DNA of 64,000 nucleotides from an uncultured Phycisphaera sp. (GTDB lineage: Bacteria > Planctomycetota > Phycisphaerae > UBA1845): NCBI GenBank assembly GCA_964486335.1, contig CAZAMB010000005.1, forward strand, positions 100,008-164,007, written 5' to 3'. The notes below the pieces were generated by a model. That model searched no databases and was not told where the DNA came from. It saw only the letters and a program-made list of their open reading frames with translations. Of this stretch, positions 40,257 to 56,931 are shown piece by piece (the stretch's first letter is position 1; each line of letters starts with the position of its first letter). A program made the position numbers and the translations under genes.

Positions 40257-41768
40257 ATGGAACGAAAGAGCGTTTACCTTGAGACAATGGGCTGCCAGAT
40301 GAACGTGCTCGACAGCGAGCTCGTCATGGGACAGCTTCGCGCATTGGGTTATTCGCCTACGAGCGCCATGACCGAAGCCGATGTCGTGCTGCTCAATACT
40401 TGTTCGGTGCGAGACCACGCCGAGCAGAAAGTTCTTTCCCGGCTTGGCGCGCTTAAGAAAACAAAATCTAGCCGACCCGACATGGTGGTGGGTGTGATCG
40501 GCTGCATGGCCGAGCGCGACCCCGACGGCATCTTCAGCAAAATGCCGCACGTGGATTTGGTTTGCGGGCCGGGTGAACTGAACAAGGTGCCGGCTCTGAT
40601 CGAGGACGTTCGGGCGACGCGATCGCGCGCAATTGCCCTTGCCCAATCGCTTTCACGTAAGAGCACGCCGCTGGATCGCGGTTTGGAGTACGATTCCGTC
40701 GAAGCGCTCGATCTCTCGCGCGACCCCGCGCCCGGTGAATCCGTGCTCCAGTCTTACGTTCGCGTGCAGAGGGGCTGCGACAAGTTTTGCACGTTTTGCG
40801 TCGTTCCGTTCACTCGCGGACCGGAACGGAGTCGGCCGCCGTCGCAGATCGTCGATGAGGCTCGAATGCTCGCTGATCGCGGCGCTAAGGAGATCACGCT
40901 TCTTGGACAGACGGTCAACAGCTATGTGCAATCGGAAGACGGAAAAGAGGTTCGATTTGCGGATCTGCTCGAGCGCGTCAGTGCGGTTCCCGGTGTCGAA
41001 CGAGTTCGTTTTGTCACGAGCTACCCCGGCGATTTTACTGATGACATTTTGCAGGCCATGCGCGATTTGCCCCAAGTGTGCGAATACTTACACCTTCCGG
41101 TGCAGAGCGGAAGCGACACCGTCTTGCAGCGCATGCGTCGCCAGTACAGCGTTTCGCAATACACTGAACTGATCGACCGCGCCCGACAGTATGTCCCAGA
41201 CATCGCCATCGCAAGCGACTTTATCGTCGGATTCTCGGGTGAGACTCAAGAGGATCACGAAGCCACGAAGCGACTAATCGAGCGATGTATGTTCAAGAAC
41301 ATCTTCGTCTTCAAGTACTCGACGAGGCCCGGAACGGTGGCGGACAAGCGCATGGACGATGACGTTTCGGAATCCGTCAAGCGTGGACGCAACGTTGAAT
41401 TGCTGCGTCTGCAAGAGGGCATTTCGATGGAAGCCAATCAGCGAATGATCGGGCGCGAAGTCGAAGTGCTCGTGGAAGGTTTCAGTAAGGCCGCACTGAA
41501 GGCGCAGGAATCGGAGCAGGATCGCGGCCAGGAAGTCGGGTGGCGGCGCGGCGACCAATTGGTTGGCCGAACGCGACAAGATCAGATTGTTGTCTTTTCA
41601 GGTGATCGACGTTTGATCGGCAATTTCATTTCGGTCCGCGTCGTTGCGGCAACCGCGCTGACGTTGCACGCCGAATTCAAGAGGGGTGACAACGGCCGTG
41701 TGACGAGCGACCCTCTCGCGGATCGGCTTCCGGTCGCTACCCTCCCGATTGTTTGTGGTTCCGGTTGA
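40257..41768 (+). CDS. miaB: tRNA-i6A37 methylthiotransferase MiaB
   Basis: 503 aa. An N-terminal UPF0004 Cys triad is followed by the radical-SAM motif CDKFCTFC and a TRAM domain. Confidence 0.92.
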   Translation: MERKSVYLETMGCQMNVLDSELVMGQLRALGYSPTSAMTEADVVLLNTCSVRDHAEQKVLSRLGALKKTKSSRPDMVVGVIGCMAERDPDGIFSKMPHVDLVCGPGELNKVPALIEDVRATRSRAIALAQSLSRKSTPLDRGLEYDSVEALDLSRDPAPGESVLQSYVRVQRGCDKFCTFCVVPFTRGPERSRPPSQIVDEARMLADRGAKEITLLGQTVNSYVQSEDGKEVRFADLLERVSAVPGVERVRFVTSYPGDFTDDILQAMRDLPQVCEYLHLPVQSGSDTVLQRMRRQYSVSQYTELIDRARQYVPDIAIASDFIVGFSGETQEDHEATKRLIERCMFKNIFVFKYSTRPGTVADKRMDDDVSESVKRGRNVELLRLQEGISMEANQRMIGREVEVLVEGFSKAALKAQESEQDRGQEVGWRRGDQLVGRTRQDQIVVFSGDRRLIGNFISVRVVAATALTLHAEFKRGDNGRVTSDPLADRLPVATLPIVCGSG

Positions 41769-41785
41769 CGCCTTGCGAAAACTGC

Positions 41786-42169
41786 ATGGCCCAGCTATAC
41801 TTCCCAGTCATGACTTCGAGCCATTCCACGGTTGCACCGCCGCGAACGCTGCCGGCTCCCGAGACGCTGGAGGACACGCGCGCTCACCATCAGCTTCTGC
41901 CGATGTATCATGTTGTCCTGCTTGATGACAATGACCATACGTATGACTACGTGATTTCCATGCTTCGAAAGCTCTTTGGCATGACGACCGAACAGGCCTT
42001 CGTTCACGCCAACGAAGTGGACACGCAAAAACGAGTGATCCTCGATACGACCACGCTCGAAAGGGCTGAGTTAAAGCGGGATCAGATTCACACGTTTGGG
42101 CGCGATTGGCGCATTCCTCGTTGTGCCGGCAGCATGTCCGCGGTCATTGAGCCGGCCGGCGACCGATAA
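41786..42169 (+). CDS. clpS: ATP-dependent Clp protease adaptor ClpS
   Basis: YHVVLLDDNDHTYDYVISMLRKLFGMTTEQAFVHANEVDTQKRVIL is the typical ClpS core. The start is ambiguous between 41786 and 41810. Confidence 0.88.
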   Translation: MAQLYFPVMTSSHSTVAPPRTLPAPETLEDTRAHHQLLPMYHVVLLDDNDHTYDYVISMLRKLFGMTTEQAFVHANEVDTQKRVILDTTTLERAELKRDQIHTFGRDWRIPRCAGSMSAVIEPAGDR

Positions 42170-42309: not shown

Positions 42310-42381
42310 GCGGGTGTAGCTCAGTGGTAGAGCGTCACGTTGCCAACGTGAATGTCGAGGGTTCGAGCCCCTTCACCCGCT
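42310..42381 (+). tRNA. tRNA-Gly (anticodon GCC)
   Basis: GCGGGTG-TA-GCTC-AGTGGTA-GAGC-G-TCACG-TTGCCAA-CGTGA-ATGTC-GAGGG-TTCGAGC-CCCTT-CACCCGC-T. The cloverleaf was folded by hand. The T-stem has one G-T pair. Confidence 0.92.
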
Positions 42382-42489
42382 GTTCCTGACGCGCCGTACC
42401 ACGAAGCGACACAGGCGTGCAACCTTTGACTCCAACGCTAGTTACAGCGACCGATTCTCGGCTTTCCTAGATTCTCATTGCCTGGTCGC
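42336..42489 (+). repeat. Island direct repeat, left copy (tRNA-Gly anticodon arm to 3' end plus 108 nt downstream)
   Basis: Gap-free hand alignment with 53567-53720. The tRNA part is 41/46 identical and the downstream part is about 79/108 identical. Confidence 0.85.
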
Positions 42490-42557
42490 TTTTGCCAGAA
42501 AGTGACCGGAATGGACCGCAGTGGACGCCCATTCGTGCAAGGTCTAGTGCGAATTGA
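42396..42557 (+). pseudogene. Decayed copy of the 5' part of the island HTH gene
   Basis: In the frame equivalent to 53627, the translation is VPRSDTGVQPLTPTLVTATDSRLS*ILIAWSLLPESDRNG... The intact copy reads MPASDIAVQLLTPARVTTTDSCLSQVYISWSRFELSKRAG... An in-frame TAG lies at 42468-42470. Confidence 0.45.
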
Positions 42558-42653
42558 ACTCGATGAAAATGCTACGAGGGTTGTGAATTGGCGGGCTTCG
42601 ATTGGTGGTGGGTCGACGCTCGGAGATTCGTCGACCAGTGCGCTCAAAGTAGA

Positions 42654-43166
42654 ATGGAAATGGTCATGGGAATTCGCAACGTCATGGCAGCATTTGAGGC
42701 AATCGATCGTTGCGTCACGAGATGGATGGCTCGTTATGGGCAGCTGCTCCTTCGATTAAGCTTGGCCTTTGTTTTCCTCTGGTTTGGCGCCTTGAAATTC
42801 TTTCCCGAAATGAGCCCCGCCCAGGAACTCGCCACGCGTACCATTGGTTATTTGACCGGCGGTTGGGTCGGCCCAGGTCTGTCCGTTCCTGCACTCGCGG
42901 CGTGGGAGTGCCTGATTGGGCTTGGACTCCTCATCGGAAAGGGACTGCGCGCCGTCCTGTTCCTTCTATACTTGCAGATGATGGGTACGTTGACGCCCGT
43001 GGTCCTCTTTCCCGAAGTAGTGTTTTCCCGCATTCCTTTCGTTCCGACCTTGGAAGGACAGTACATCATTAAGAACCTCGTATTGATCAGTGCAGGCATT
43101 GTGATCGGCGCGACTGTTCGCGGTGGCAAGCTGGTCGCCGAGCCGCACGCCGTTGTGGACGAATGA
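42654..43166 (+). CDS. Integral membrane protein (DoxX/DUF417-like)
   Basis: Four hydrophobic segments are present. LLLRLSLAFVFLWFGALKF is typical of DoxX/YkgB-like proteins. The start is chosen at Met 42654. The family is tentative. Confidence 0.6.
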   Translation: MEMVMGIRNVMAAFEAIDRCVTRWMARYGQLLLRLSLAFVFLWFGALKFFPEMSPAQELATRTIGYLTGGWVGPGLSVPALAAWECLIGLGLLIGKGLRAVLFLLYLQMMGTLTPVVLFPEVVFSRIPFVPTLEGQYIIKNLVLISAGIVIGATVRGGKLVAEPHAVVDE

Positions 43167-43168
43167 AC

Positions 43169-43627
43169 TTACAGAGTACGCCGGACGGTTTCACGCTCCC
43201 ATTCCAGGCATTCGGCAATCCATAAGGAAAGCTCGGCGGCCAGGTCCGCTCGCAGGAGGATGTACGAGCCCCGACCGTATTTTTCGTCGACTGGATGCAA
43301 CACGGCATGGGCGGCGGGTGTGGTCAATTCCAATTAGCCTACCGTCATCGACGCCCGTTCGCTCTTCAGCGGTCCGGTCAGTGCGAGCATTTGATAGATC
43401 AATTCCCATTCTCGTCTTGCGCGTTCGAGATGAGCAATCAGTTCTAGGTTATACGACTGTATATTGTGCGCTCGCTCCATGGCGGCATGCAAATCATTCA
43501 ACGTCAGAGCCGCTCGCTTCCACGTGGCCCGACTTTCGCGAGTTCGCCACTCCTCGCTTGAAAGCACGACTTCGCGTCTGTACTCCGCAAGAGGCCGCGA
43601 CTGGGCGACGAGCAAAAACCGTTTCAA
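43169..43627 (-). pseudogene. Hypothetical gene interrupted by an in-frame TAA
   Basis: The 97-aa ORF 43334..43627 ends ...ASMTVG-TAA. The same frame continues LELTTPAAHAVLHPVDEKYGRGSYILLRADLAAELSLWIAECLEWERETVRRTL to the TAA at 43169-43171. Confidence 0.45.
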
Positions 43628-44055
43628 TTCAGATTCAGTCGAGGCGCTTCGCGGGAGACACTGATCTTTGGTTCAGACGGGAGCGCAAAAAGTTGCCAAA
43701 TGCGTCCGGGGCGTTTGCTTGAGAATGAAGTATGAGACAGAATCCCGATACTCTTCAGCTTGAGGCACACTAATGCGACCCAGTTTTAATACAATTTGGC
43801 AAAACGGGCGCTTTACAGGATCTTTGACGCAACATCTCAAAAAGATTGCTCAATTGAGTAGATCGACTTTCAATTGCGAACGCTACTTGAAAGCGCTTCT
43901 TAATATTATCATACTATCAACTGATGCTCGTCTCATTAGAACGAAAGGACTCTCGGAGTTTTTGCGGCAGCGTGTTCCGCATTCGGGCCTCATATCAAAT
44001 TCGGCCTGAGCGGGGCTGACAAGGACGTTGAGCTGTCCTACCCAATCATGACGCT

Positions 44056-45465
44056 GTGCCATCGAAAAGTGTTTGGCTGAGGTTTTTCTGTGAAGGCCGT
44101 TGCCTTTCGAGGGCCGCGCTGGCGCGGTCGCTTGCGGACCAAGGCGTATCGGTCGTGGATCCTTTGTCAGAGCGCGAGTCCGGCCCCGGAATTGTCGTAT
44201 TCCAAATTGTTAATTCCGAGCTCTGTGAGCTGATGTCCAAAGTCTCATGTTGTGGTTCGGAACGAGTGCTCGCTTTGGCCGATACTCCATCTGTACTTAA
44301 AAAAGGAGACGTTTGGCGCCTTTTGCACGCCGGCGCGGCGGATGTATTTGATTGGGTGGAATCGGCCAATCCGGCACGGGAGATCGCGATCCGGTTGACA
44401 CGTTGGACCGAGGTCGACGAAATTGTCAAATCATCTCTGGTTCGGGAAAACCTGATTGGACATAGTCGAATTTGGAACGACCTCCTTCGACAAATCGTCG
44501 AAGTAGCGCGATTTTCCGAAGCCTCGATTCTGATAACAGGAGAGAGTGGAACCGGTAAGGAATTGATTGCCCGTTTGATCCATACACTCGATGCCCGGCC
44601 AGACAAAGGTGAACTCGTCGTGCTCGACTGCACAACGATTGTACCGGAACTCGCTGGAAGCGAATTCTTTGGTCACGAGCGTGGGGCCTTTACCGGAGCG
44701 ATTGTCGCACGTGATGGCGCCTTCGCGCTGGCGAACGGCGGCACGCTTTTCCTCGACGAAGTCGGAGACCTACCACGGACGTTGCAGGCGCAGTTGCTTC
44801 GCGTGATACAGGAACACACCTATAAACGTGTAGGAGGCAACCAATGGTGCCAGTCGCATTTTCGATTGTTGTGTGCCACGAACAAGGACTTGACGGTTGA
44901 GGTGAAGGAAGGGCGATTTCGCGCCGACTTGTACTACCGAATTGCAGATTGGACGATTCGATTGCCCCCACTTCGTGACCGTACCGAGGACATTCCCCTG
45001 TTGGCTCGACACTTCATCCAAGCCCATGGCCACCATCGGAGCGATTTCAATTCCGAAGTGACCGAGTATCTGTTGTCTCGGGACTACCCGGGAAACGTTC
45101 GCGATCTGAAACAAGTGGTGGCGCGAATGAGCCATCGACACGTTGGCCAGGGCGAAATCACCGTCGGAGCGATCCCGCCCACGGACCGGCCTCAGGCGGA
45201 GAGTCCGTTGGATAGATGGAGCGACAGAGTGTTCGAACTACCGGTTCGACACTCTCTGGCAGTTGGCGTGGGACTGAAGGAAATCGGCCGAATTGCCGAG
45301 GAGACCGCCGTTCAGATCGCTCTCGCGGAAGAAGGCGGAAATCTGCAGCGAGCCGCTCGACGATTGAAAGTGTCGGATCGCGCCTTGCAGCTCCGACAAG
45401 CCAACGGACGAGGACCCAAGGAAGCGCCCAGCGACCCCGTCATCGAGGGACGGACGCCTGCGTAG
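44056..45465 (+). CDS. Sigma-54-dependent transcriptional activator (bacterial enhancer-binding protein)
   Basis: 469 aa with a GTG start. The AAA+ core has GESGTGKE (Walker A), GGTLFLDEVG (Walker B) and an intact GAFTGA loop (ERGAFTGA). The C-terminal Fis-type HTH is GNLQRAARRLKVSDRALQLR. The N-terminal ~140 aa sensor domain is not assignable by eye. Confidence 0.9.
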   Translation: MPSKSVWLRFFCEGRCLSRAALARSLADQGVSVVDPLSERESGPGIVVFQIVNSELCELMSKVSCCGSERVLALADTPSVLKKGDVWRLLHAGAADVFDWVESANPAREIAIRLTRWTEVDEIVKSSLVRENLIGHSRIWNDLLRQIVEVARFSEASILITGESGTGKELIARLIHTLDARPDKGELVVLDCTTIVPELAGSEFFGHERGAFTGAIVARDGAFALANGGTLFLDEVGDLPRTLQAQLLRVIQEHTYKRVGGNQWCQSHFRLLCATNKDLTVEVKEGRFRADLYYRIADWTIRLPPLRDRTEDIPLLARHFIQAHGHHRSDFNSEVTEYLLSRDYPGNVRDLKQVVARMSHRHVGQGEITVGAIPPTDRPQAESPLDRWSDRVFELPVRHSLAVGVGLKEIGRIAEETAVQIALAEEGGNLQRAARRLKVSDRALQLRQANGRGPKEAPSDPVIEGRTPA

Positions 45466-46282
45466 CCGGCGAAGGTTGGAGCCATGGCTCATTTGGCTCG
45501 ACCATCGGTCTGGAGGGCTTGGCGCCAAAGTGAACGGAACCGACGGGGTTTCGCGAGACTTGGGAAATGAGCCTCAGGATATTCCCGCCGAGAACAAGTC
45601 GCGCGTACTGGGGCGACATGCCAAGCGCTCGAACCTTGGCCAACTCGACGCCAGGATGCAACCAAGGACCGTCGGAACCAAACAGAATTTTTCTTGCGCC
45701 GGCACGATGAAGCGCTTCTTCGAGCAGATCGAACCTTCTTACACCGGACGTATCGGTATGGACATTGGGGTAACGAGTCAGTATGTCCAGGAACGCTCGC
45801 TGGGCGCGCCAGTCGTCTGCGAAGCTGCCCAGATGCGGGATAATGAAATTGACGCCGGCGTATTCCGAAGCGATCAACTCTACCTGCGAGACCTCGCCCA
45901 TCACATCGTAGAGGATGGGCAATGACCAGCGTTTCGCGGCTGCGCAAACCTCTCTTGTGATGGAAGCGTTGTACCGATGGACCTTGATTCCGCGAAATCC
46001 ATGCACGTGCACCGCCTCGTCGATCATCGCCTGCATTCGACCCCGGTCGGCATGTGGGTGGACGAAGGCAAAGCCGATAAAACGACCATTGGATTGAGCG
46101 ACAATTCTCGCCACTTCGCGGTTGGCGGTTCGGTAGTCGGAATGAAACGCAGGGAAGAGTACAGTTCGGCGAATCCCGGCCGCGTCGGCCCGAGCAATGT
46201 ACTTCCCAAGCGGCGCAGCGGTGTCCCAGGGACCCGTCAATCCGTCTCCGCGACCGGCATGGCAATGGCAGTCAATGATCAT
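45440..46282 (-). CDS. Amidohydrolase_2-type (TIM-barrel metal-dependent) hydrolase
   Basis: 280 aa. MIIDCHCH starts the protein, with IPHLG and ILFGSDGPW further on. It is the last gene of the island operon. Its 3' end overlaps the EBP gene 3' end by 26 nt (convergent). Confidence 0.82.
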   Translation of the reverse strand: MIIDCHCHAGRGDGLTGPWDTAAPLGKYIARADAAGIRRTVLFPAFHSDYRTANREVARIVAQSNGRFIGFAFVHPHADRGRMQAMIDEAVHVHGFRGIKVHRYNASITREVCAAAKRWSLPILYDVMGEVSQVELIASEYAGVNFIIPHLGSFADDWRAQRAFLDILTRYPNVHTDTSGVRRFDLLEEALHRAGARKILFGSDGPWLHPGVELAKVRALGMSPQYARLVLGGNILRLISQVSRNPVGSVHFGAKPSRPMVEPNEPWLQPSPATQASVPR

Positions 46283-46442
46283 GGAATCAACCTGAAAATC
46301 GTGATGGACCGCCTGCGGTAGTTGAAGTTCATTGCCGATGCGTCATGGATTCGTCGCCTCTGGGACTTCAGTAACATCTCCGACAAGACCAATTGAATAC
46401 CGGGCCGTCTGTTCACAATTGCCGAAGCGATTTGATTTTAGT

Positions 46443-47447
46443 TTATAGAATCGCACCCGATCGAGATTTGAACCAGGGGGTCAACCGTCTGGCGCCGTCC
46501 AGATTCAGTTCGGTGTGAATGTGATTCGTATGCGGACTAGGGCCAGCATAGTTTCCGTCCTTTCGGCCACTCCGTGAACCATTCCATTTGATACGATTCC
46601 AAATAACGAACTGAATTCCGATGGCCGAAGCATTTTGTACAAGCCAGTTCGCTATCGGATCTCCGACGGCGGAGTTTGCTTGGTGATCTATTTCGCGAAT
46701 CATGATGTCGAGAGCGCGCCCCACCCCGTGAACGGAGGTTTCTGACGGAGTTGCTGAATTAAATCGACATGCATAACCACCGACGGAATCAACGCCTGGA
46801 AACGTCCTTCGTATATAGGTTCCCAGTTCGGCCGCGCCAGGTGTAAACGTGCCGCTGCAATTGCGTCCATTGGCCCACGGTGGAGGACTATCATAGCGAA
46901 CAAACTGTGCTTCGCCGGCAGCGCGAACGTCGGCGGGTAGCACCCATTTCTCGCTCGAAATCGACGGGCTCGGAGAATCCGGCATACTTCCCGTGAGTCG
47001 CTCCCAGGTCCGTCTGCCGACAATGCCGTCAACCGTCAAGCCGTTCGCTCGCTGAAATGTCAGTACCGCCGCTCTCGTAAGGGGACCGAAGGCCCCATCC
47101 TCAGAAAGGCGGCTTTGTCCGGGCGCGGCGTTAGTCGCAATCCAAGCATTAAGTCGTCTTTGCAATTCGATGACAGCCGCTCCGCGCGAACCGGTTCGCA
47201 GCGTTGGCCAAGTTGGTGACTCGTTGAGAATCTCGTCGAACGATAACTCGTCAAGACCAAGTTCATGACCAGGGGACTGCTCAATTTGAAGTACACCGGG
47301 CAAGATCTCATCCAGCTCGGTTGAAAATGGCGATTGATGATCCAGCGGCAGGATGATGTTGCGGCCATGTCGAAACCAGCGGCCGCCTCGTTTTGCACGC
47401 AGGCCACTTGTTTTTCTTACAGAAGATGATGCGCGCAGTCTGTTCAT
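46443..47447 (-). CDS. Peptidoglycan-binding-domain protein with C-terminal LAS-like metallopeptidase-type motifs
   Basis: Start at the ATG at 47447, which makes an ATGA overlap with the upstream stop. The PG_binding_1 repeat is GSRGAAVIELQRRLN...DGAFGPLTRAAVLTFQRANGLTVDGIVGRRTWERL. The C-terminal part has SVHGVGRALDI and HTNHIHTE. The catalytic assignment is inference. Confidence 0.75.
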   Translation of the reverse strand: MNRLRASSSVRKTSGLRAKRGGRWFRHGRNIILPLDHQSPFSTELDEILPGVLQIEQSPGHELGLDELSFDEILNESPTWPTLRTGSRGAAVIELQRRLNAWIATNAAPGQSRLSEDGAFGPLTRAAVLTFQRANGLTVDGIVGRRTWERLTGSMPDSPSPSISSEKWVLPADVRAAGEAQFVRYDSPPPWANGRNCSGTFTPGAAELGTYIRRTFPGVDSVGGYACRFNSATPSETSVHGVGRALDIMIREIDHQANSAVGDPIANWLVQNASAIGIQFVIWNRIKWNGSRSGRKDGNYAGPSPHTNHIHTELNLDGARRLTPWFKSRSGAIL

Positions 47448-48604
47448 GACCTGACTCCTTGGTTTAGGGACAAAGTGGAACCGTAAGATTCCCCGGCGGC
47501 TGAATTCTCGAGTTTCAATTGGCGTGCGCGCGCCAGCGCTTGGCACGCTGAACTGATGTCAATTGGGTTGTGATCGGCGTTGATCAGAAAGGCGATGTTT
47601 GCCCGTGCAGGTCTTTGAACCGAAAGCAGTACCGTTTGGACCCCCATACCCCTAAGCCGACCGGTCATTCTCCTTGCTTCGCCTGACGACCGAAACGACA
47701 ATATCTGCACAGGGAAGAGTCCCGGAGATGGCGTGAATCCTGCCGATCGTGTTCCGGCACGAAATCGTCGTACATTGGAGAGGAGCTGCGATCGTCGTGA
47801 GTTGCCGATGCGCTCGTTGGCCGTCAGCGCGTTCGTGGCAGCCCTGATGGACGCCTGGGAAGGCGGACTGCAATGAACTCGAGTCTCGCTGCGCGTTGCA
47901 AACTGCTCGACAATGTCACCGCGACTCGACAGAGCGGCCACCGGCGCTCCGAATCCCTTGGCCAGGGAACTGATCAAGACCAATTCCTTCGCGCGAACGC
48001 CCCACCACTGGGAGCTTCCGCCTCCGCCTAGCCCATACGGCATTGTTCGCGTCGGTCGCGCGCCAAGAACGCCAAGCGCTTGAGTGTCATCTACGACAAC
48101 AAGACCCTTCACGGCTCGCATCTGACGAAGATAGCTTGTAAGAGGTGCAACCCGTCCGCATCGCATACAGGAACCATCAACGACAACCACCGGACGTGAT
48201 GCAGGCCCGCCAGCATCCTGAAGTGATCGACGCAATGACGAAGGGCAATAGTGCCGAAACGTCTGGACAGACGCGCCGCGCGCCGCCGCCCGTTCCAGTC
48301 CCCAGCGTCCGATGGGATAAAGTCCGCTATCCATGAAAAACCGTGCCCCTTCGTCGGCGAGCATGCCGAGGAAGTCCCAAAACAAGTGTAACGTCGAAGT
48401 TCCAAGCAAAGCCGCTTCACAGCCTTGCAGGTCGGCCAACAATTGGGCGACCCGCTTCGCCTCAGCTGACTCATCAAGTGCCGCAGGTCGGCCGGTCGTC
48501 AACTGCTCCCACGATCCCAGCGCCGAACTCGGGTGCCGCATGCCCAGATACTGGGCCGAGGTAAAGTCAAGCACTGGATGATTTCCGTCAACGACCTCTG
48601 CCAC
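47444..48604 (-). CDS. PLP-dependent class I/II aminotransferase-fold enzyme, alpha-oxoamine-synthase-like
   Basis: 386 aa. LDFTSAQYLGM, VVDDTQALGVLG and SLAKGFGAPVA (putative PLP Lys) parallel the AONS/serine-palmitoyltransferase motifs. Confidence 0.7.
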   Translation of the reverse strand: MAEVVDGNHPVLDFTSAQYLGMRHPSSALGSWEQLTTGRPAALDESAEAKRVAQLLADLQGCEAALLGTSTLHLFWDFLGMLADEGARFFMDSGLYPIGRWGLERAAARGASVQTFRHYCPSSLRRSLQDAGGPASRPVVVVDGSCMRCGRVAPLTSYLRQMRAVKGLVVVDDTQALGVLGARPTRTMPYGLGGGGSSQWWGVRAKELVLISSLAKGFGAPVAALSSRGDIVEQFATRSETRVHCSPPSQASIRAATNALTANERIGNSRRSQLLSNVRRFRAGTRSAGFTPSPGLFPVQILSFRSSGEARRMTGRLRGMGVQTVLLSVQRPARANIAFLINADHNPIDISSACQALARARQLKLENSAAGESYGSTLSLNQGVRS

Positions 48605-50261
48605 CCGTCAATTGCGATTGCAGCCGTTGGCTTAATAGCACTGAAGGCATGGTCGCATTCACCATTCCACTCACCGGCTGAGCTGTCAGATCAACACCCG
48701 TAGCCGCGCGGTAAGCATGGAGGTAACCCTGAATTTCCGGCTTCCAATATCGAGCCCATGTTCGAGCGTGTTCCTGGTCTGTTAGGACATTCCAGTTTCC
48801 ATACCGGATCGAGAGCAGAATCCGTTCTCCGAGGACGCCCAAATCGCGAAAATGGGTGACCGTTACGTCGCTCCAACCCTGAACTCGTTTCATCGCGTCC
48901 ACGCGGCCCATCCACGGTTCCGCATAGGGCACCATGATCCGAGTGCCGAGGAATTCGCGCATTTCGGGTCGGGACAACAACCACTGCTGCATCATCATCT
49001 CGACTCGCGCTGTCCACGGCAGATCCCCGAATTGATTGTGCGCCCCTTGGGCAAGCAGCAAATGGACTTCCTTTAGCGCGTTGAGAAGAGGGAACCCGTC
49101 GGAAATCACGGTCGTGTCCGAGTCTTCCTGAAAAAACACGGAGCTGCGATACAAAAGATCGTGAAATGCTTCGAGAAACTTTGAACGGTTGTCGGCCGGA
49201 CGCATGGTCGAAACGGCCTTGCCCGCGAGCGCCAGTCCGTAGTGGTGGCTATACTCATAGGCTCGGCGAGGAACCGTGAGGCGATGGACTTCGTCCTGGA
49301 TGTACCCCCAAAGAAAGTTGTTGAGTGGCCTCAGCGGATCGATTTCCAACTCGGCCAATGGGTCGCGACCTGCGCCGCGCCGTTTGTTCTGGAATCGAAG
49401 GCTGATGGCGTTCAATGTTTGCGCCAACATCCCTTCTTCGTGCCAATACGACCAGATCAGTTCCAGCAGGCATGGACAAGAAGATTTCGCGCAGAGGATT
49501 TTCCCGTCACAGAAGGCCGAGGTAGCCGTCTGTTCTCGCCAATTCTCACCGAAGGCAGCGGTTAGAATCGTGTTCAAGTAATTGATATCCTTCGTTCGCA
49601 AGTAACTCGCCAGCTTGTCGCTAATGTCCTTCAGGGTGCCGCCCGGCAATGGGAAGTCATCCTCCAGACGTTTGACTTCAGATCCGGGGTCATCCTTTTC
49701 ACCCCATCCTTCGGTCTCGGCGCATGCGCATGGATCGCAATTACTCTTTTCACCTGCTTCTTGTTGTTTCTGAGCAGATGCGCCTTCGCGTGTTGTCGAT
49801 TCCGGATCGTCGGGTTTACGATAACAGGGATCAGGCTTTTTCTTTTCGGGGTCCAGAAACTCATCAGGATGCATTCCCTTTTGAAACGGCCCGCATGTGC
49901 AGCCGCAGCGGATGAGCAAAAACGTCTCCGTGGCCGTCTTCAAAAGGTCGTAGGCGTCCATGCCGTGGATGCAGGGTTCCTTGCTCAAACTTTCTCGCAG
50001 CCTTCGTTCCGGGCAGCAGTCGGGATCTTTGGTGTCTTTGTCGCAGAGCACTCGATCAATAAACTTCGCGTATTCCGAGAACGATGTCCGTTCCGAAGCA
50101 GTCCGAATCCACATCCATAACGGATACGTGTCGTCCCGTTTGAGCGGGGATCTCGAAAGCGAAAAGGTGCCGGACGCCGGCTTGGCAAAATCGCCAGAAA
50201 CACTTACCTTGACTCCCTTCGCCAGCTCTTTACCTTCAACAATAATCTTTCCTTCAGCCAT
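48588..50261 (-). CDS. Hypothetical 557-aa protein, Cys-rich N-terminal half, no recognisable family
   Basis: This long ORF is in operon context. About 15 Cys residues lie in clusters (DCCPE, CGCTCG, CDPCAC, CAKSSCPC), all in the N-terminal half. The C-terminal ~285 aa contain no Cys. Confidence 0.8.
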   Translation of the reverse strand: MAEGKIIVEGKELAKGVKVSVSGDFAKPASGTFSLSRSPLKRDDTYPLWMWIRTASERTSFSEYAKFIDRVLCDKDTKDPDCCPERRLRESLSKEPCIHGMDAYDLLKTATETFLLIRCGCTCGPFQKGMHPDEFLDPEKKKPDPCYRKPDDPESTTREGASAQKQQEAGEKSNCDPCACAETEGWGEKDDPGSEVKRLEDDFPLPGGTLKDISDKLASYLRTKDINYLNTILTAAFGENWREQTATSAFCDGKILCAKSSCPCLLELIWSYWHEEGMLAQTLNAISLRFQNKRRGAGRDPLAELEIDPLRPLNNFLWGYIQDEVHRLTVPRRAYEYSHHYGLALAGKAVSTMRPADNRSKFLEAFHDLLYRSSVFFQEDSDTTVISDGFPLLNALKEVHLLLAQGAHNQFGDLPWTARVEMMMQQWLLSRPEMREFLGTRIMVPYAEPWMGRVDAMKRVQGWSDVTVTHFRDLGVLGERILLSIRYGNWNVLTDQEHARTWARYWKPEIQGYLHAYRAATGVDLTAQPVSGMVNATMPSVLLSQRLQSQLTGGRGR

Positions 50262-50285
50262 GATTTTCTCCTTCGTTCGACGGGA

Positions 50286-51614
50286 CTATGAGGCCCGTGC
50301 GATTGTTTTCTGTGTTCGACCGACGAAAACCCTGCTCCGCGAACAACGGACACAAGCGCCAAACGTGCTTCGAAGCGCCCAATGACTGAGCAATCCACTC
50401 ACGAGGCGACTCTCTTCAACCGGATTGAGGACGCCGTACGCTTTTGCTTGTCCCAATACGGCGAACACAAGCGACTCCGGAGCGGCCCGCAACTGTTCTG
50501 GAAATCGTCGCCAGGTCTGAAAGAGTCTCATTAGGCGATGTGGTTGCCGCTCCTCGACACCGAGGACTTCCCCCAGAGACAATCCCCTGAGAGACTTCGG
50601 TCGATGATGTGTCAACAACGCCACAAAACCAGGAATGCTTGCCTGTAACGCGTTGAATAGCGCGAAACGTCTTGGGTCAAGCTGCGTTGGCGGATAAAAC
50701 GCGTCCCACATCCTCGCGAAATGTTCCCATTGCGGATGTGGATAGAGCGCTTGTCCGACCGCACAACTGAGCTTGACCCTGATCCACGGGCTTGGGTGCG
50801 GATCGTCAAGGTTGATTCGAAAAACGAATCCACGCGGCAGACTGACTACACTCATCAATCCCATGGTGGACGTGATGCCCAACTTCGCCACGGACCAGAA
50901 GTCGGCAACAACCTCGGAAATCCACCGCTCCCAGGCCAGCCACGCAAACGCTTCTGCGCTCCCTTTCTTCCGCATTCCCAGAAGAATTGGCCGGAAGGAC
51001 GGAACCAGTTTCAGCAGTTCCGCTGCCTGATGACCGACCTCGTGGACCAAAGACGATGCGATTCCGCTGCCTACCATTCTCTCCCGCGGCACGCGGATAA
51101 TGGCAACGGGATTGCGCCCGCCCGTGGGCATCCGCGTTCGCGCCCGCCGTATCGCCGCGCCGGGTCCGCGGTCCAGGTAACAAATCACCGGCGGTTCCGA
51201 GTAGTAGCCGCCACCAAGGTGCAATGCATCGGCGGCAAACGCATCCAGTCCGGATAGCCAGATTCCCGTTTCATGTTCGCTGCGTTGAGTGATTGCATCC
51301 GCAAACAGATCAAGATCCGAAAGGACGGCGTTGAACCGCAATCGGAGGAGTACGAATCGCCGCTGCGCTTCCTCGGCGGAGGACAACCGCCCATTCGAAC
51401 CCTCAAGCCACGCCAGAAATGCAACGACTTGTTCCCGCAAATTGCGTCGCCCTTGAAGCAAGTACCCGTCGATGGCTCTTTGCGCGGTTGAGGAAATCGC
51501 CGCGGCGGTTACCGAAGTGATTTGCAGCGCGAATGGCTTCACGATAGCCAGTCGTGTCAGCAGGGCACGGGCTTCCTGCGCAAGAAAACAAGTTGTGTTG
51601 GAACGCATGGACAC
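50286..51614 (-). CDS. Hypothetical 442-aa protein with HExxH motif (putative zinc metallopeptidase)
   Basis: The only motif recognised is SSLVHEVGHQAAELL. The rest is helical-looking sequence without a family I can name. Confidence 0.75.
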   Translation of the reverse strand: MSMRSNTTCFLAQEARALLTRLAIVKPFALQITSVTAAAISSTAQRAIDGYLLQGRRNLREQVVAFLAWLEGSNGRLSSAEEAQRRFVLLRLRFNAVLSDLDLFADAITQRSEHETGIWLSGLDAFAADALHLGGGYYSEPPVICYLDRGPGAAIRRARTRMPTGGRNPVAIIRVPRERMVGSGIASSLVHEVGHQAAELLKLVPSFRPILLGMRKKGSAEAFAWLAWERWISEVVADFWSVAKLGITSTMGLMSVVSLPRGFVFRINLDDPHPSPWIRVKLSCAVGQALYPHPQWEHFARMWDAFYPPTQLDPRRFALFNALQASIPGFVALLTHHRPKSLRGLSLGEVLGVEERQPHRLMRLFQTWRRFPEQLRAAPESLVFAVLGQAKAYGVLNPVEESRLVSGLLSHWALRSTFGACVRCSRSRVFVGRTQKTIARAS

Positions 51615-51620
51615 GACTTG

Positions 51621-52289
51621 TCAAACTCCCAACAGAATGATGCGCCGACCGCGGCGAATCCAGCGACCGCTCTGCCCCGCACTCGAAGTGCTCGCCAGCC
51701 CAGTGTTCATGAGGCCTGGCGCATGACGTTGAGCCGCGGCGGCCAGGGCCGACTTTGCGACGATTCGGGGATCAGTGGTATGTGGGGATGCGGCGGCGTG
51801 CTGAGCAGCGGCGCCGGCCAAGCGAACGAATCGTCGGGCGATTTCAAATTCCTGATCTTCGCCGCTGAGGCCCTCAAATTCCAAGCCAAACAGCTTGCCG
51901 GCCGCGGATCCGGCGGCACTTCCAAGCGCCGTTCCGACACCGGGGATCGGGATGAGTGACCCCAGGGCGCCTCCGGCAATCGGCAGAACCTTCTTGGCGA
52001 TGCCTTTGAGGATTCCGCCAAGCGGACGGAAAACGCGAGGAGCGATGCGCTTAATCCCCTTCCAGGCGCGCTTGAACAATTTGCCGAGGAATTCATCGAT
52101 TTCCTGGTCGCTCGACAATGTGAGCAGTTCGGAGGCGAAATCAACTTCTTCGTCCTGCGTAAATGGTCCCTCGCCGGTCCCGAAATCTCCAAATTCTTCG
52201 AAGACTTCAAAATCGCTCGTTTCACCGCCGAAACCATCGGTTTCCCCGGTGTCTTCGAAATACGTCTGAGTCTGGTCTATGTCGTGCAT
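51621..52289 (-). CDS. Hypothetical 222-aa protein: acidic N-terminus, cationic Gly-rich segment, C-terminal GRWIRRGRRIILLGV tail
   Basis: Residues 1-69 have no Lys or Arg and about 22 Asp/Glu. Residues 70-107 have 11 Lys/Arg and no acidic residues (KLFKRAWKGIKRIAPRVFRPLGGILKGIAKKVLPIAGG). A GxxxG-rich stretch follows. It is a paralogue of 52302..53126. Confidence 0.8.
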   Translation of the reverse strand: MHDIDQTQTYFEDTGETDGFGGETSDFEVFEEFGDFGTGEGPFTQDEEVDFASELLTLSSDQEIDEFLGKLFKRAWKGIKRIAPRVFRPLGGILKGIAKKVLPIAGGALGSLIPIPGVGTALGSAAGSAAGKLFGLEFEGLSGEDQEFEIARRFVRLAGAAAQHAAASPHTTDPRIVAKSALAAAAQRHAPGLMNTGLASTSSAGQSGRWIRRGRRIILLGV

Positions 52290-52301
52290 GTGTTTCTCCT
52301 C

Positions 52302-53126
52302 TTAAATGCCAAGTGCTACGATGGTGTGTCCCGTACGCATCCACCTGCCGTTACCGGGCCGATGAATGGCATAACTGATCCTTGATTCATCCTCGGTTTG
52401 GTCTTCCTCAGGTGCGACAGGAGGCTTGTTGCTTATGCCGAAACCTTGGTCGATCGAATCCTGAATGACGCTTCCACAATGTTGGGCACATGCCGCACAA
52501 TCGCACTCGATTGGCTCCACGGGTTCCGGCGCGACACCGGCGGCCGAACGTGCCCCACCATTGCTCGATGACGACGGAAAAGAAGATGGCATGGACGTTT
52601 GCGCAGGCCGTGTTCCGCTGTCGGTCGGAGGAAATTCCGGCCCATGGGATGGCTTTCCTGTGCGATGCCGCCATCTCCGTTTGCGTCGAAGCTGCTCGCG
52701 AAGAACGCGGAGTGCTGTTCTAATGGCAGGCAAAGCAGCATTTCTCGCGTGTTGTGTACGAGACAGCCGTCTCGCCAACCGACCTGCCAATCGTCCAAAC
52801 CGAACAGCTCGACGTGCTCTCTCAAGGTCCTCTTCATCCGTTTCGAACCCCTCAAGACTGCCATCAATGAACTCCCGAAATTGAGCGTTCAAAGACTCTG
52901 ACGGATCGCCCATGGGCGACGACGCGATGAAGGGTACCCGGCGAATGCCATCAATTGCGCTCTGTACTTGCGGCGTGATGAACTTGGCCAGACTATTCGT
53001 CGTTGAAGTGAGTGACTCCCCGCATTTGCCTAATGTCGCGAGCACAGCTCTGGCAATCTCGTTGCCACTGACCGCTCCTAGCAGGTCAATTGCCAGTTCT
53101 TCTTCGTTTTTTTGGCGATCGTACAT
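52302..53126 (-). CDS. Hypothetical 274-aa paralogue of 51621..52289 (tail NGRWMRTGHTIVALGI)
   Basis: It shares three segments with the downstream gene. Start region: EEELAIDLLGAVSGNE vs EVDFASELLTLSSDQE. Middle: EEDLERARRAVRFGRLAG vs DQEFEIARRFVRLAGAAA. C-terminal tail as in the call. The start is moved to Met 53126 because a sigma-54 promoter lies inside the 5' extension of ORF 52302..53291. Confidence 0.7.
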   Translation of the reverse strand: MYDRQKNEEELAIDLLGAVSGNEIARAVLATLGKCGESLTSTTNSLAKFITPQVQSAIDGIRRVPFIASSPMGDPSESLNAQFREFIDGSLEGFETDEEDLERARRAVRFGRLAGRLARRLSRTQHARNAALPAIRTALRVLREQLRRKRRWRHRTGKPSHGPEFPPTDSGTRPAQTSMPSSFPSSSSNGGARSAAGVAPEPVEPIECDCAACAQHCGSVIQDSIDQGFGISNKPPVAPEEDQTEDESRISYAIHRPGNGRWMRTGHTIVALGI

Positions 53127-53182
53127 AGCACAATTCAATTGGATTGGACTCGCGCATGGGTCCGAACTCAGCTGTGAAAGAA

Positions 53183-53198
53183 AGCAAGTTCCATGCCA
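53183..53198 (-). promoter_or_regulatory. Sigma-54 (-24/-12) promoter
   Basis: The minus strand reads TGGCATGGAACTTGCT, against the consensus TGGCAC-N5-TTGCW. The GG and GC dinucleotides are at canonical spacing. The motif lies 56 nt upstream of the ATG at 53126. An EBP with GAFTGA is encoded in the same island. Confidence 0.6.
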
Positions 53199-53227
53199 GA
53201 AAAACTGGGCCAATAATGGGCATTCTG

Positions 53228-53243
53228 GCGAAGTGTACTTCGC
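53228..53243. promoter_or_regulatory. Dyad GCGAA-N6-TTCGC (candidate enhancer/UAS 1)
   Basis: GCGAAGTGTACTTCGC has 7-bp perfect arms around a 2-nt centre. It lies about 30 nt upstream of the -24 element. Confidence 0.35.
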
Positions 53244-53268
53244 AACGACTGATGAACGGTGCAATTCA

Positions 53269-53284
53269 GCGAATCGCGCTTCGC
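53269..53284. promoter_or_regulatory. Dyad GCGAA-N6-TTCGC (candidate enhancer/UAS 2)
   Basis: GCGAATCGCGCTTCGC has the same 16-nt architecture. It is 41 bp (about four helical turns) from the first dyad. Confidence 0.35.
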
Positions 53285-53566
53285 CGATCATTCTGTTCGC
53301 TGTTGTCCAGTGAACGAAACAGGCCGAGGTGTTATGGGATTCCGTGGCCTGTGGTCAATGGTATTGGATAAGGCAACGAATCACTCGTTTCGAGGTGAAT
53401 CGGACGTTTAAAGTGACGAATCCTGACTTGATCCTACTCGATTGCTCCAATGCTGGGATGAATACTCATTTAACAGATCGCAAATGGCTCTTGGAAAGAA
53501 ACGTGGAAGGGGTTTCCGCATTCTCCGTAACTCTTTGGTTTTGCGCGGTTTAGAACTCGCTGCGTT

Positions 53567-53612
53567 CATGTTGCCTACGTAAATGTCGAGGGTTCGAGTT
53601 CCTTCACCCGCT
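53567..53612 (+). pseudogene. tRNA-Gly 3' fragment (anticodon arm to 3' end), non-functional
   Basis: 41/46 identical to 42336-42381. The anticodon-stem and loop changes are not compensatory. The region 5' of it cannot form acceptor or D arms. Confidence 0.75.
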
Positions 53613-53720
53613 TTGTTTGACGCGCCGTGCCAGCGAGTGACATCGCGGTCCAACTCTTGACCCCAGCGCGAGTTACGACGACCGATTCTTGCCTTTCCCA
53701 GGTTTACATTTCATGGTCGC
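53567..53720 (+). repeat. Island direct repeat, right copy
   Basis: See 42336-42489. The offset is 11231 nt with no gaps over 154 nt. Confidence 0.85.
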
Positions 53721-53863
53721 GTTTCGAGCTGTCTAAGCGGGCGGGCGTCCCGTACAGCGGAATCCACCGCTTTATCAGCTACGACCGCGACCTGACCCTG
53801 ACAACGGCGTCACGGCTGGCCGACGTGCTGGGGCTGGAATTGCGCCCTGCAAAAGGAAAGTAG
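53627..53863 (+). CDS. Small helix-turn-helix protein (Xre/excisionase-like position)
   Basis: 78 aa from the GTG at 53627. FELSKRAGVPYSGIHRFISYDRDLTLTTASRLADVLGLEL is a typical HTH. It ends 8 nt before the integrase start. Confidence 0.55.
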   Translation: MPASDIAVQLLTPARVTTTDSCLSQVYISWSRFELSKRAGVPYSGIHRFISYDRDLTLTTASRLADVLGLELRPAKGK

Positions 53864-53870
53864 GTGCATC

Positions 53871-55340
53871 ATGCCGAGAGTATTCCGGCAAAAATACACG
53901 CAACCGACGGCAGACGGAAAACGAAAAACGCGACAAAGCGCTAAGTGGTACGTCGAGTACCGCGACGCCCAAGGCATTCGGCGTCGGGTTCCGGGGTACA
54001 CCGACAAGGGCGCGACCCAACAGCTCGCGGCGGAGTTGGAACGAAACGCGGAGCGACAGCTCGCGGGTCTGGTCGATGCCTTTGCCGATCATCGAAAGCG
54101 CCCTTTGCGGGAACACCTGAATGATTGGCACGGCGCCTTGATCGCACGCGGCGCGTCGCGCGATTATGCCGACTTGGTCAAGAGCCGAGCGACCAAGGCG
54201 CTGACAGGTTGCGGATTCGTTTTCCTTGCCGACGTATCGGCATCCGACCTGCAAGCCTATCTGAGCAGGTTGCGAAGCGACGGACTGAGCATTCAAACGG
54301 TCAATTTCTACCTGCAAGCGGTCAAGCAGTTTTTCCGCTGGATGGTTGCTGACCGACGAATGCCCGACAACCCGGTCGCGTACCTGCGCGGGGGGAATGT
54401 CCGAACGGATCGTCGCCACGATCGACGCGCACTCGACACTGATGAACTGCGATCGCTACTCGACGCTACGAAGAATGGACCGGAACGGTTTGGCATGAAG
54501 CCTGATGCGCGGGCAATGCTTTATCAGCTTGCGGTTGAAACTGGTCTGCGGGCCACCGAACTGCGAACGCTGACTTGGGATTGTCTGGACTTGGAAGGCG
54601 ACCTGCCGACGGTGACGGTCAAGGCCGGTTATAGCAAACACCGGCGAACCGATACCCTTCCTTTAAAGCCGTCTACGACGCAAACGCTGGCCCGCTGGAG
54701 CAACGAACTCGGCAACGTGGACCCAACGGCACGCCTTTTCAACATGCCGCCCAAGGCCGCGAAAATGCTCCGAGCTGATCTGGCCGACGCTGGCTTACCG
54801 TATGCCGATGCTGATGGGCGCGTGGCCGATTTTCATTCCTTGCGGCACACTTACATTTCCAATCTGGCCCGTGGCGGTGTTCATCCAAAGATCGCCCAAC
54901 AGCTTGCCCGGCATTCGACCATTACGCTGACGATGGATCGCTATTCGCACACGGTTTTGGGCGAGCTATCAGACGCACTGTCGGCCCTGCCGGAGCTGGA
55001 CGCCACGCCATTCGAGCAAGAATCGGTGAGAGCGACCGGCACCTGCGGCAACCCCCAAAAATGCTTACCGATTTCCTTACCGAAATCCTTACCGAAACGC
55101 GGTGCGCGGCGAGAGTTGTCCCATTCATCGGCGTGCAATGATCCAACGCAAACCGCGAAATTCGACCGGCAAGAAAATCCTATGAATATAGGTATTTCCT
55201 GCGCTTCCACGCGTGACGACGCGGGTGTGTTCGTGGAACAATCCCGACTGCGCCCGGCGGGATTCGAACCTGCGACCCCCGGTTTAGGAAACCGGTGCTC
55301 TATCCAACTGAGCTACGAGCGCAACAATCGGCTAGTATAA
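53871..55340 (+). CDS. Tyrosine recombinase / phage-type integrase
   Basis: 489 aa. It has an N-terminal SAM-like domain. The catalytic region has LAVETGLRATEL (Arg), HSLRHTYISNL (HxxR) and HSTITLTMDRYSH (His/Tyr). The last ~30 codons read antisense through tRNA-Arg. Confidence 0.9.
   Translation: MPRVFRQKYTQPTADGKRKTRQSAKWYVEYRDAQGIRRRVPGYTDKGATQQLAAELERNAERQLAGLVDAFADHRKRPLREHLNDWHGALIARGASRDYADLVKSRATKALTGCGFVFLADVSASDLQAYLSRLRSDGLSIQTVNFYLQAVKQFFRWMVADRRMPDNPVAYLRGGNVRTDRRHDRRALDTDELRSLLDATKNGPERFGMKPDARAMLYQLAVETGLRATELRTLTWDCLDLEGDLPTVTVKAGYSKHRRTDTLPLKPSTTQTLARWSNELGNVDPTARLFNMPPKAAKMLRADLADAGLPYADADGRVADFHSLRHTYISNLARGGVHPKIAQQLARHSTITLTMDRYSHTVLGELSDALSALPELDATPFEQESVRATGTCGNPQKCLPISLPKSLPKRGARRELSHSSACNDPTQTAKFDRQENPMNIGISCASTRDDAGVFVEQSRLRPAGFEPATPGLGNRCSIQLSYERNNRLV
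55249..55322 (-). tRNA. tRNA-Arg (anticodon CCT)
   Basis: The minus strand reads GCGCTCG-TA-GCTC-AGTTGGATA-GAGC-A-CCGGT-TTCCTAA-ACCGG-GGGTC-GCAGG-TTCGAAT-CCCGC-CGGGCGC-A. There is one A-C mismatch in the T-stem and one G-T pair in the acceptor stem. Confidence 0.85.
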
Positions 55341-56721: not shown

Positions 56722-56931
56722 CCTGTGAATCCGCGCTGTGCTGGCAGGGACGGCGCTTCGGCTTCACTTATGGGTCCTACGATGCGTCGAGTAGCCGGCA
56801 CATTTACGGAAACCTAGAATGGATCAGCGGGAAGCCCATTTCGGAGGTCCGGTTGCGAACTTCCCGAGTGGTCCACGAGGGTTAGATTGGCGCGAATTCT
56901 AAGATTGATATCACCGCAGGGAGAGCGAGCG

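Follow-up and report, generated by a model that had tools for sequence, protein, structure and literature searches.

How does a genome come to carry, between two tRNA genes that face each other, a displaced end of one tRNA and an integrase gene that runs into the other? This question is raised by positions 42310 to 55340 of a 64-kb stretch of contig CAZAMB010000005.1 from an uncultured Phycisphaera sp.; the whole stretch of 64,000 nucleotides is called the window below. The interval lies between the convergent genes for tRNA-Gly(GCC) and tRNA-Arg(CCT) and contains two diverged copies of a direct repeat that starts within tRNA-Gly. We consider it probable that it is a fossil composite, built from three integrative elements that used these two tRNA genes, namely a newer element at tRNA-Gly(GCC), a short stump of an older, related element at the same gene, and the remnant of a third, unrelated element at tRNA-Arg(CCT). 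The features are collected in Table 1.

A diverged repeat of the tRNA-Gly(GCC) gene

The repeat finder returned a single large pair, a direct, gap-free repeat of 159 nt with 78% identity at positions 42335-42493 and 53566-53724. Counted base by base, 41 of 46 positions are identical in the tRNA part and 79 of the next 108 (73%), and past position 154 only 17 of 46. The initial annotation had placed the copies at 42336-42489 and 53567-53720, gap-free, with 41/46 identities followed by about 73% of 108 nt, and these counts were exact on recount. BLASTN within the window gave an E value of 1.3e-32 for the pair and no third copy in the 64 kb. Since the E value is this low and the base counts were reproduced, the repeat is real and lies far outside what chance would produce.

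The right copy of the tRNA part has the same orientation as tRNA-Gly itself. At least three of its five differences from the intact gene are at bases on which all 15 related loci described below agree, and one difference breaks an anticodon-stem pair. This fragment has therefore decayed since it was displaced. A search of 42-56 kb against Rfam at E ≤ 1 gave the two tRNAs and no other match.

The repeat as part of an attachment site

The sequence following the tRNA part is called X in the left copy and X′ in the right copy. A metagenome scan with the X motif gave 15 matches, all about 38 nt downstream of either a tRNA-Gly(GCC) gene or a 3′ fragment of it (47 nt). The possibility raised at the outset that the repeat is widely dispersed thus did not hold, as the window holds no more than two copies and every one of the 15 metagenome matches adjoins tRNA-Gly or a fragment of it. 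In the related locus L093, a convergent gene for a 396-aa integrase (int93), which belongs to an element with a kinase gene, lies 228 nt after tRNA-Gly, and these 228 nt are homologous to both copies in the window. The homology of the left copy to L093 runs past the internal repeat to 42560, but that of the right copy does not: homology of X′ ends at 53724, while X arms elsewhere continue for about 100 nt further. Homologues of int93 (67-87% identical) adjoin X on the minus strand in seven further loci (L094, L098, L101, L104, L105, L106, and L107), and this layout was seen both after a full tRNA with ClpS upstream and after a far arm with a tRNA fragment.

The arms on the two sides of the tRNA-derived core have a recurrent composition. 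Across the family, the X arm comprises about 200 nt after the core, with a GTTGTC/GACAAC hairpin, the motif GAGTTACG and two direct repeats of GTGCAAGGT. The left copy in the window has TAGTTAC at 42439 and the arm-type motif GTGCAAGG at 42535, where one GTGCAAGGT repeat is kept; the second copy, at 42547, is decayed. The right copy is cut before the GTGCAAGGT repeats. The far arm, which precedes the fragment copies, has GTG[C/G]AAGG, then GCGCCGTAACTCTT (CCGTAACTC in the window) and then GGTTTAGAAC, and the far-arm motifs of the window precede the tRNA-Gly fragment in the same order in L095, L097, L099, L103, L105, and L108 as well. The two arms are linked by their motifs: GTG[C/G]AAGG has one copy in the far arm and two in the X arm, and GAGTTACG in the X arm is an inverted copy of CGTAACTC. 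From their conservation across the 15 loci, the arm motifs are putative integrase-binding sites.

Because of the strict linkage to tRNA-Gly, the shared far arm and the position of int93 beside X, we interpret X and the far arm as the two arms of an attachment site (attP) of the int93 type. Judged by sequence comparison, the repeat would then be part of an attachment site of about 400 bp that is used by planctomycete elements targeting tRNA-Gly(GCC). The window has the layout of the int93 family, with the tRNA-Gly core, the X arm, a convergent int93-type pseudogene, and the far arm in front of the fragment. A junction of far arm, fragment and X is what is expected after tandem or successive integration, or in an excised circle. 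In attP sites of the lambda type, a core is combined with arm-type integrase sites. The family described here likewise has a core between conserved arms, with a repeated short motif and an inverted pair as putative arm-type sites.

X and X′ are 73% identical to each other, whereas X′ is 54-65% identical to other X arms, and X and X′ together are 49-65% identical to the others. They are thus each other's closest relatives, and two elements of one lineage would therefore have entered the same host lineage. When X and X′ were translated on the minus strand as a possible antisense integrase tail, there was no likeness to integrase tails, and X lies downstream of the int93 stop codon; this candidate was rejected. 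The X arms of L097, L099, and L106, which come from one metagenome (Ga0214473), are mosaic, the first half of L106 resembling L097 and its second half L099. The mosaics point to recombination between the att copies of elements that were tandem or co-resident in that metagenome.

A chimeric helix-turn-helix ORF behind the right copy

The initial annotation had read the 108 nt of the left copy as a decayed version of the helix-turn-helix (HTH) gene that starts at 53627, with an in-frame TAG at 42468, and had regarded the right copy as followed by an intact HTH gene and a tyrosine integrase gene. The TAG is present, and both open reading frames (ORFs) exist behind the right copy, but the first ~21 residues that family members have at the N terminus are missing from the HTH ORF. 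In a profile hidden Markov model of 21 family HTH proteins, positions 22-68 align to the ORF, and positions 1-21 are without counterpart. Likewise, tblastn matches to family HTH proteins cover only residues ~30-78 of the ORF. A small HTH gene precedes the integrase gene in at least 30 homologous loci.

Homology between X and X′ ends at 53724 and HTH homology starts at 53717, so that the arm stump and the HTH gene are fused within about 8 nt. Substitutions between the repeat copies are spread over the codon positions as 9/9/12, without bias. As the homology breakpoints coincide and the codon positions are hit evenly, the first ~30 codons of the HTH ORF are X′ sequence. The 108 nt of the left copy are accordingly an X arm and not HTH remains, as is also borne out by the metagenome matches.

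An integrase pseudogene and a sigma-54 cassette in the left island

The initial annotation had described the left, newer island as one that carries a sigma-54 operon and has lost its integrase. The sigma-54 operon is there and a working integrase is not, but the integrase gene is not wholly gone: a tblastn search with int93 detected a pseudogene on the minus strand with 50% identity over residues 121-279 (E value of 2e-34) and one in-frame stop. Its catalytic-arginine box is changed from LTGLRKGEL to LTGPLKSER. The right-hand integrase of the window is of a different type, with 27% identity to int93. Compared with the intact layout of L093, the final ~48 nt of the X arm and integrase codons 280-396 have given way to a DoxX-like gene. 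The AT-rich spacer noted in the initial annotation (GC content of 0.49 at about 43500-44250) sits where the 5′ part of the integrase gene and its upstream region would be. An ORF of 199 aa at 43123-43722 on the plus strand is antisense to the pseudogene and probably spurious.

The remainder of the island is taken up by the gene for a sigma-54-dependent activator (bacterial enhancer-binding protein, bEBP) and a minus-strand cargo cassette spanning 45440-53291. The activator and the whole cassette are syntenic in L112 (L112:1211-9255), with 50-66% amino acid identity, beside Cas2 and an integrase fragment, and the activator adjoins the same cassette in a contig of P0244 as well. For the 557-aa cargo protein, identity to the best homologue is 61% (versus 82% for MiaB in the left flank), and its homologues are spread across phyla. 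By this synteny, the activator and the six-gene cassette (44056-52289) are conserved cargo that recurs in unrelated contexts. The cargo has nothing in common with that of other int93 elements, which carry kinase-TPR (tetratricopeptide repeat) and ECF (extracytoplasmic function) sigma genes. PADLOC defence-system models gave generic bEBP matches on the cargo and nothing else.

Tetranucleotide deviation reaches the maximum of the window at 41-47 kb (z of 2.3-2.8) and is raised at 47-53 kb, and the GC content at third codon positions is 0.52-0.64 in the island genes versus 0.66-0.75 in the flanking genes. The island composition thus deviates moderately from the flanks; a flank-like composition, which had been named at the outset as an argument against an island, was not seen. 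Two sigma-54-like -24/-12 boxes, TGGCATGGAACTTGC (53184-53198) and TGGCAACGAGATTGC (53053-53067), lie on the minus strand upstream of the cassette, inside the ORF 52302-53291. A scan of the window for sigma-54 promoters gave four matches, two of them upstream of the cassette, versus 4.3 expected by chance, which is not statistically meaningful.

The right-hand integrase belongs to a family with the att core inside its gene

The last 93 nt of the right-hand integrase ORF are antisense to tRNA-Arg(CCT), and the ORF reads through the whole tRNA. The residues that are invariant in its family (R227, K256, H322, R325, H348, and Y358) are all present. The family is large, with thousands of homologues in planctomycete metagenome-assembled genomes (MAGs) and 580 matches among species-representative genomes. 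We aligned the tails of 30 homologues and analyzed the genomic layout of 80 loci from GTDB species-representative genomes. The tail of ~130 aa after the catalytic Tyr358 contains a conserved RATGT motif, and its terminal peptides, such as RPAGFEPATPGLGNRCSIQLSYE, correspond to the translated antisense strand of a tRNA.

In 56 of the 80 loci the integrase ORF overlaps a complete convergent tRNA gene, and in 51 loci it reads through almost the entire tRNA. At least 14 isoacceptors are targeted, tRNA-Arg(CCT) in 7 of the 56 loci and tRNA-Gly in none. A direct repeat of the tRNA 3′ end (~50 nt) lies 5.5-9.7 kb upstream of the integrase gene in at least 10 loci, and the repeats delimit small elements of this size with HTH_17 and AAA_25 genes and a small HTH gene just before the integrase gene. 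The closest homologues, L083 (70% identical) and L084 (67%), overlap tRNA-Arg(CCT) convergently and are flanked by its 3′ repeats. On the strength of these homologues, the HTH and integrase genes of the window appear to belong to tRNA-Arg(CCT) and not to tRNA-Gly. A second tRNA-Arg fragment was not found in the 64 kb at a word size of 7, a second integrase of this type was not found in the window by tblastn, and HTH_17 and AAA_25 cargo genes were absent from the window. As the second fragment and the family cargo genes are missing here, the HTH-integrase pair is regarded as a remnant.

Two observations on other members of the family concern the junction of integrase gene and tRNA. In L054, two complete tRNA-Cys genes 9.7 kb apart (L054:1635-1769 and 11366-11500) are contained in a 110-nt repeat (90% identical) reaching into the integrase tail, and a comparable 112-nt repeat was found in L035 at tRNA-Lys. 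Many MAG contigs, among them L003, L004, L012, L026, L027, L038, and L051, stop exactly at the border between integrase gene and tRNA. The likely reason is a repeated or variable junction in those MAG populations, which would break the assemblies.

Different inserts at the same tRNA-Gly gene in relatives

Comparison with related loci, which the initial annotation had proposed, revealed the same tRNA-Gly site with different inserts. The order MiaB-ClpS-tRNA-Gly is kept in L089, L093, L096, L106, and L109, and the MiaB relatives are 79-82% identical. In L089 and L090, tRNA-Gly is followed by a gene for a 414-aa integrase on the plus strand and then by prophage-like genes, and L089 is without X, whereas L093 carries the int93 element; the right end of the latter is not within its 9.4 kb. 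In L109, ~80 nt of X come after tRNA-Gly, then an NHL-repeat gene and ordinary genes without an integrase. We take L109 as a second independent arm stump, which fits deletions that remove elements yet are unable to extend into the tRNA. From the different inserts of these relatives, tRNA-Gly(GCC) appears to be an integration hot spot in this planctomycete clade. A circular form was not found among the metagenome contigs, which had no terminal overlaps.

On the right side of the interval, genes for S21 and a short-chain dehydrogenase/reductase (SDR) come after the integrase ORF. Farther on, an ORF without a Pfam match (56887-57906) contains two tandem 105-nt units that are 77% identical and rich in Asp codons (57548-57757).

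Table 1. Features of the interval and its left flank (positions in the window)
Feature	Position	Strand	Evidence	Remarks
MiaB	40257-41768			Left flank
ClpS	41753-42169			Left flank
tRNA-Gly(GCC)	42310-42381	+	ARAGORN; Rfam, 71.9 bits	Integration target
Left att core copy	42335-42381	+		Last 46-47 nt of tRNA-Gly(GCC)
X arm	42382-42560	+	Homologous to a ~200-nt block after tRNA-Gly or its fragment in L093-L108	Putative integrase-proximal attachment-site arm of the newer element
DoxX/DUF417-like membrane protein gene	42666-43166	+	Pfam DUF417 and DoxX just below threshold; partial RclC match	
int93-type integrase pseudogene	43178-43651	-	tblastn with L093:12341-13531(-)	Recombinase of the tRNA-Gly element family
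Sigma-54-dependent activator (bEBP)	44056-45465	+	Pfam Sigma54_activat, E value 1e-56	Cargo
Amidohydrolase	45440-46282	-	Domain search	Cargo
PG_binding protein (PG_binding or OmpA)	46443-47546	-	Domain search	Cargo
BioF/Kbl-like pyridoxal phosphate (PLP) enzyme	47444-48604	-	Domain search	Cargo
Three proteins without family	48588-50261, 50286-51614, 51621-52289	-		Cargo
Doubtful ORF	52302-53291	-		Not called by the gene caller on the identical contig L001
Far arm	53490-53565	+	GTGGAAGG at 53503, CCGTAACTC at 53525, GGTTTAGAAC at 53547	Putative distal end of the newer element
Displaced 3′ tRNA-Gly fragment	53566-53612	+		Right att core copy; decayed, 5 differences
X′ arm stump	53613-53724	+	GAGTTACG at 53670	112 nt; putative remnant of an older related tRNA-Gly element
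HTH_3 ORF	53627-53863	+	Family homology from nt 53717 only	Chimeric, 5′-truncated
Tyrosine integrase	53871-55340	+	Pfam Phage_integrase	489 aa, intact, second family
tRNA-Arg(CCT)	55248-55323	-	ARAGORN, Rfam	Putative target of the HTH-integrase element remnant

A proposed history of the interval

From the anatomy of the interval, both integrase families, the arm homologies and the truncation points, all of which can be read off the DNA, we infer an order of events and a single deletion at the joint of X′ and HTH. The newer tRNA-Gly element, of about 11.2 kb, would have entered by a tyrosine-recombinase crossover in the 3′-terminal ~47 nt of tRNA-Gly(GCC). Its integration would have rebuilt the tRNA at the left and displaced the old 3′ end to 53566-53612. 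The sequence then downstream of the tRNA would have been the X arm of an earlier, related element of the int93 type, of which 112 nt (X′) survive. A third, unrelated element with its attP inside the integrase gene would have occupied the convergent tRNA-Arg(CCT), and its cargo and far repeat would have been lost. A deletion would have joined the older X arm, after its position 112, to the HTH gene at codon ~31, and the newer element with the sigma-54 cassette may have come before or after this deletion. Afterwards the tRNA-Gly integrase gene would have decayed and its 3′ third would have been overwritten by the DoxX-like gene. Excision would now leave a defective tRNA-Gly, because the displaced fragment has lost an anticodon-stem pair. 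The truncated integrase pseudogene and the defective fragment would therefore lock the island in place.

This history retains the initial view that the repeats are att duplications at tRNA-Gly and not the product of one recent integration, in agreement with the arm homologies and the decayed fragment. Of the two related elements in tandem that had been proposed, successive integration at tRNA-Gly is kept, but the older element is represented by the tRNA fragment and the 112-nt arm only.

Several points weigh against a composite of three elements. The sole other contigs of the organism (Logan L001 and L002) are 100% identical to the window, and an excised form, an empty site or strain polymorphism was not found. 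The ~80 nt of X without an integrase in L109 are also compatible with an old chromosomal flank. Since the cargo is unlike that of other int93 elements, some of the interior may have been exchanged once the element had integrated. The putative protein-binding role of the arm motifs is drawn from their conservation across the 15 loci, and with no local tRNA-Arg repeat in the 64 kb, the assignment of the HTH-integrase pair to tRNA-Arg follows the behaviour of its family.

Alternative explanations

The strongest competitor is a single integration in which X was an ancestral chromosomal flank and the incoming element brought a mimic of the tRNA plus flank, so that an older element would not be needed. 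L109, in which X leads into ordinary genes, can be read this way, as can the occurrence of X after an intact tRNA in five chromosomal contexts with ClpS upstream. However, where far arm, fragment, X and int93 follow one another (L104 and L105), a chromosomal X would put int93 outside its own element; moreover, int93 always lies beside X, L089, which carries another insert, is without X after the tRNA, and X and the far arm share GTG[C/G]AAGG and the inverted pair CGTAACTC/GAGTTACG, as would be expected for the arms of one attP. We regard a single integration as unlikely. A quite different assignment, which was that of the initial annotation, takes the HTH-integrase pair as the core of the older element, the att site being the tRNA-Gly fragment at 53567, and the left copy as the decayed remains of the same HTH gene. 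The fragment, HTH and integrase are indeed adjacent and on the same strand, the ORF starting at 53627 is open across the repeat, and the left copy can be translated in frame with one stop. But the integrase family converges on and overlaps its target in 56 of 80 loci, never tRNA-Gly, and the ORF of the window reads through tRNA-Arg. HTH homology is confined to the part from nt 53717 on, the HTH gene being cut at the end of the repeat, the copies differ without codon-position bias, and the repeat is an X arm that is elsewhere linked to int93, of which a pseudogene is present in the left island. This assignment is very improbable.

It is just as hard to maintain that the whole 13 kb are one island of the tRNA-Arg integrase and that the tRNA-Gly repeats are incidental, although the intact integrase gene is located at the tRNA-Arg end and the cargo of its family lies upstream of the integrase gene, that is, towards tRNA-Gly. 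A tRNA-Arg 3′ fragment was not found in the window at a word size of 7, not even a decayed one near 42.2-42.3 kb, the elements of the family measure 5.5-9.7 kb and carry HTH_17 and AAA_25, neither of which is found here, the joint with X′ cuts off the start of the HTH gene, and arms of the tRNA-Gly family stand at both ends of an 11-kb interval. Finally, the strong conservation of the X blocks across metagenomes might point to a dispersed repeat or a structured RNA gene linked to tRNA-Gly. In that case neither the two copies in the window, with all 15 external matches attached to tRNA-Gly or a fragment, nor the lack of Rfam matches beyond the tRNAs would be expected, and consensus folding of 11 X arms (190 columns) was weak, at -5.6 and -11.4 kcal/mol on the two strands; the chance that this explanation is right is close to negligible. 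We therefore retain the composite of three elements at two tRNA genes.

Relation to known systems

Accretion at one att site has been modelled for ICESt1 of Streptococcus thermophilus, where cis-mobilisable elements (CIMEs) are mobilised in trans. The left island resembles a CIME in that it has att copies on both flanks and no working integrase, and in that what is left of a related element at this site lies next to it. Unlike in a CIME, both att copies and the arms are decayed in the window, and a helper element is absent from it.

Islands in tRNA genes (tDNAs) as collected by Islander have a size peak at 13.6 kb, and the members of an array each have their own integrase and their own fragment (PMC4383910). 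Like these islands, the composite has an intact tDNA at one end, a direct displaced 3′ fragment at the other and a tyrosine integrase gene next to the tDNA; one tDNA has been used repeatedly, and the size of 11 kb is near the peak. In addition, the site carries different inserts in relatives and the island deviates in composition from the flanks, which accords with an island in a tDNA. Unlike the integrases of Islander islands, that of the left island is a pseudogene fragment (residues 121-279, one stop, catalytic Arg lost). Nor do the two members form an array in this sense, since the second is a 112-nt arm stump and the integrase beside it is that of a different family at a different tRNA.

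The closest precedent for the right-hand integrase family is IntP of phage Mx8, in which attP lies inside the integrase gene, so that the 3′ end of the gene is a new one after integration (PMC6070905, which cites Tojo 1996 and Magrini 1999; the layout is noted in PMC4383910). In both cases the integrase ORF spans an att core located in a tRNA gene and would thus receive a new 3′ end at integration. The tRNA 3′ repeat at the far end, which belongs to this layout and is present in at least 10 homologous loci, is absent from the window copy, a remnant. The phage integrases among the best matches listed are 24-26% identical, and Mx8 is not among them. Unlike Mx8, the family has planctomycete hosts and small elements (5.5-9.7 kb) with HTH_17 and AAA_25 instead of phage genes, and the window keeps the HTH and integrase genes only. 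In the literature searched we found no description of an attP-in-int layout in Planctomycetota. A tentative and rather doubtful idea on this family is that the last ~30 codons of these integrase genes are templated by the antisense strand of the tRNA, so that every integration or excision would, by the geometry of the layout, swap the C terminus and provide a built-in switch of directionality or stability. The stop codon is usually located in the chromosomal 5′ half of the tRNA, and such a switch could generalise what is a single case, Mx8 IntP/IntX.

For annotation, the results mean that the ORF 43123-43722 is to be treated as antisense to a pseudogene, the HTH ORF as chimeric, and the integrase at 53871 as belonging to tRNA-Arg. 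The interval itself is an ordinary, well-understood kind of genome scar, and it leaves the current understanding of genomic islands unchanged. It does provide a fairly complete sequence definition of a putative attP, consisting of far arm, core and X arm, and it indicates that truncated arms would accumulate at such sites because deletions cannot extend into the tRNA, and that a conserved sigma-54 cassette travels as island cargo. The more unusual item, although incidental to the scar, is a large planctomycete integrase family with the attachment core inside the integrase ORF.

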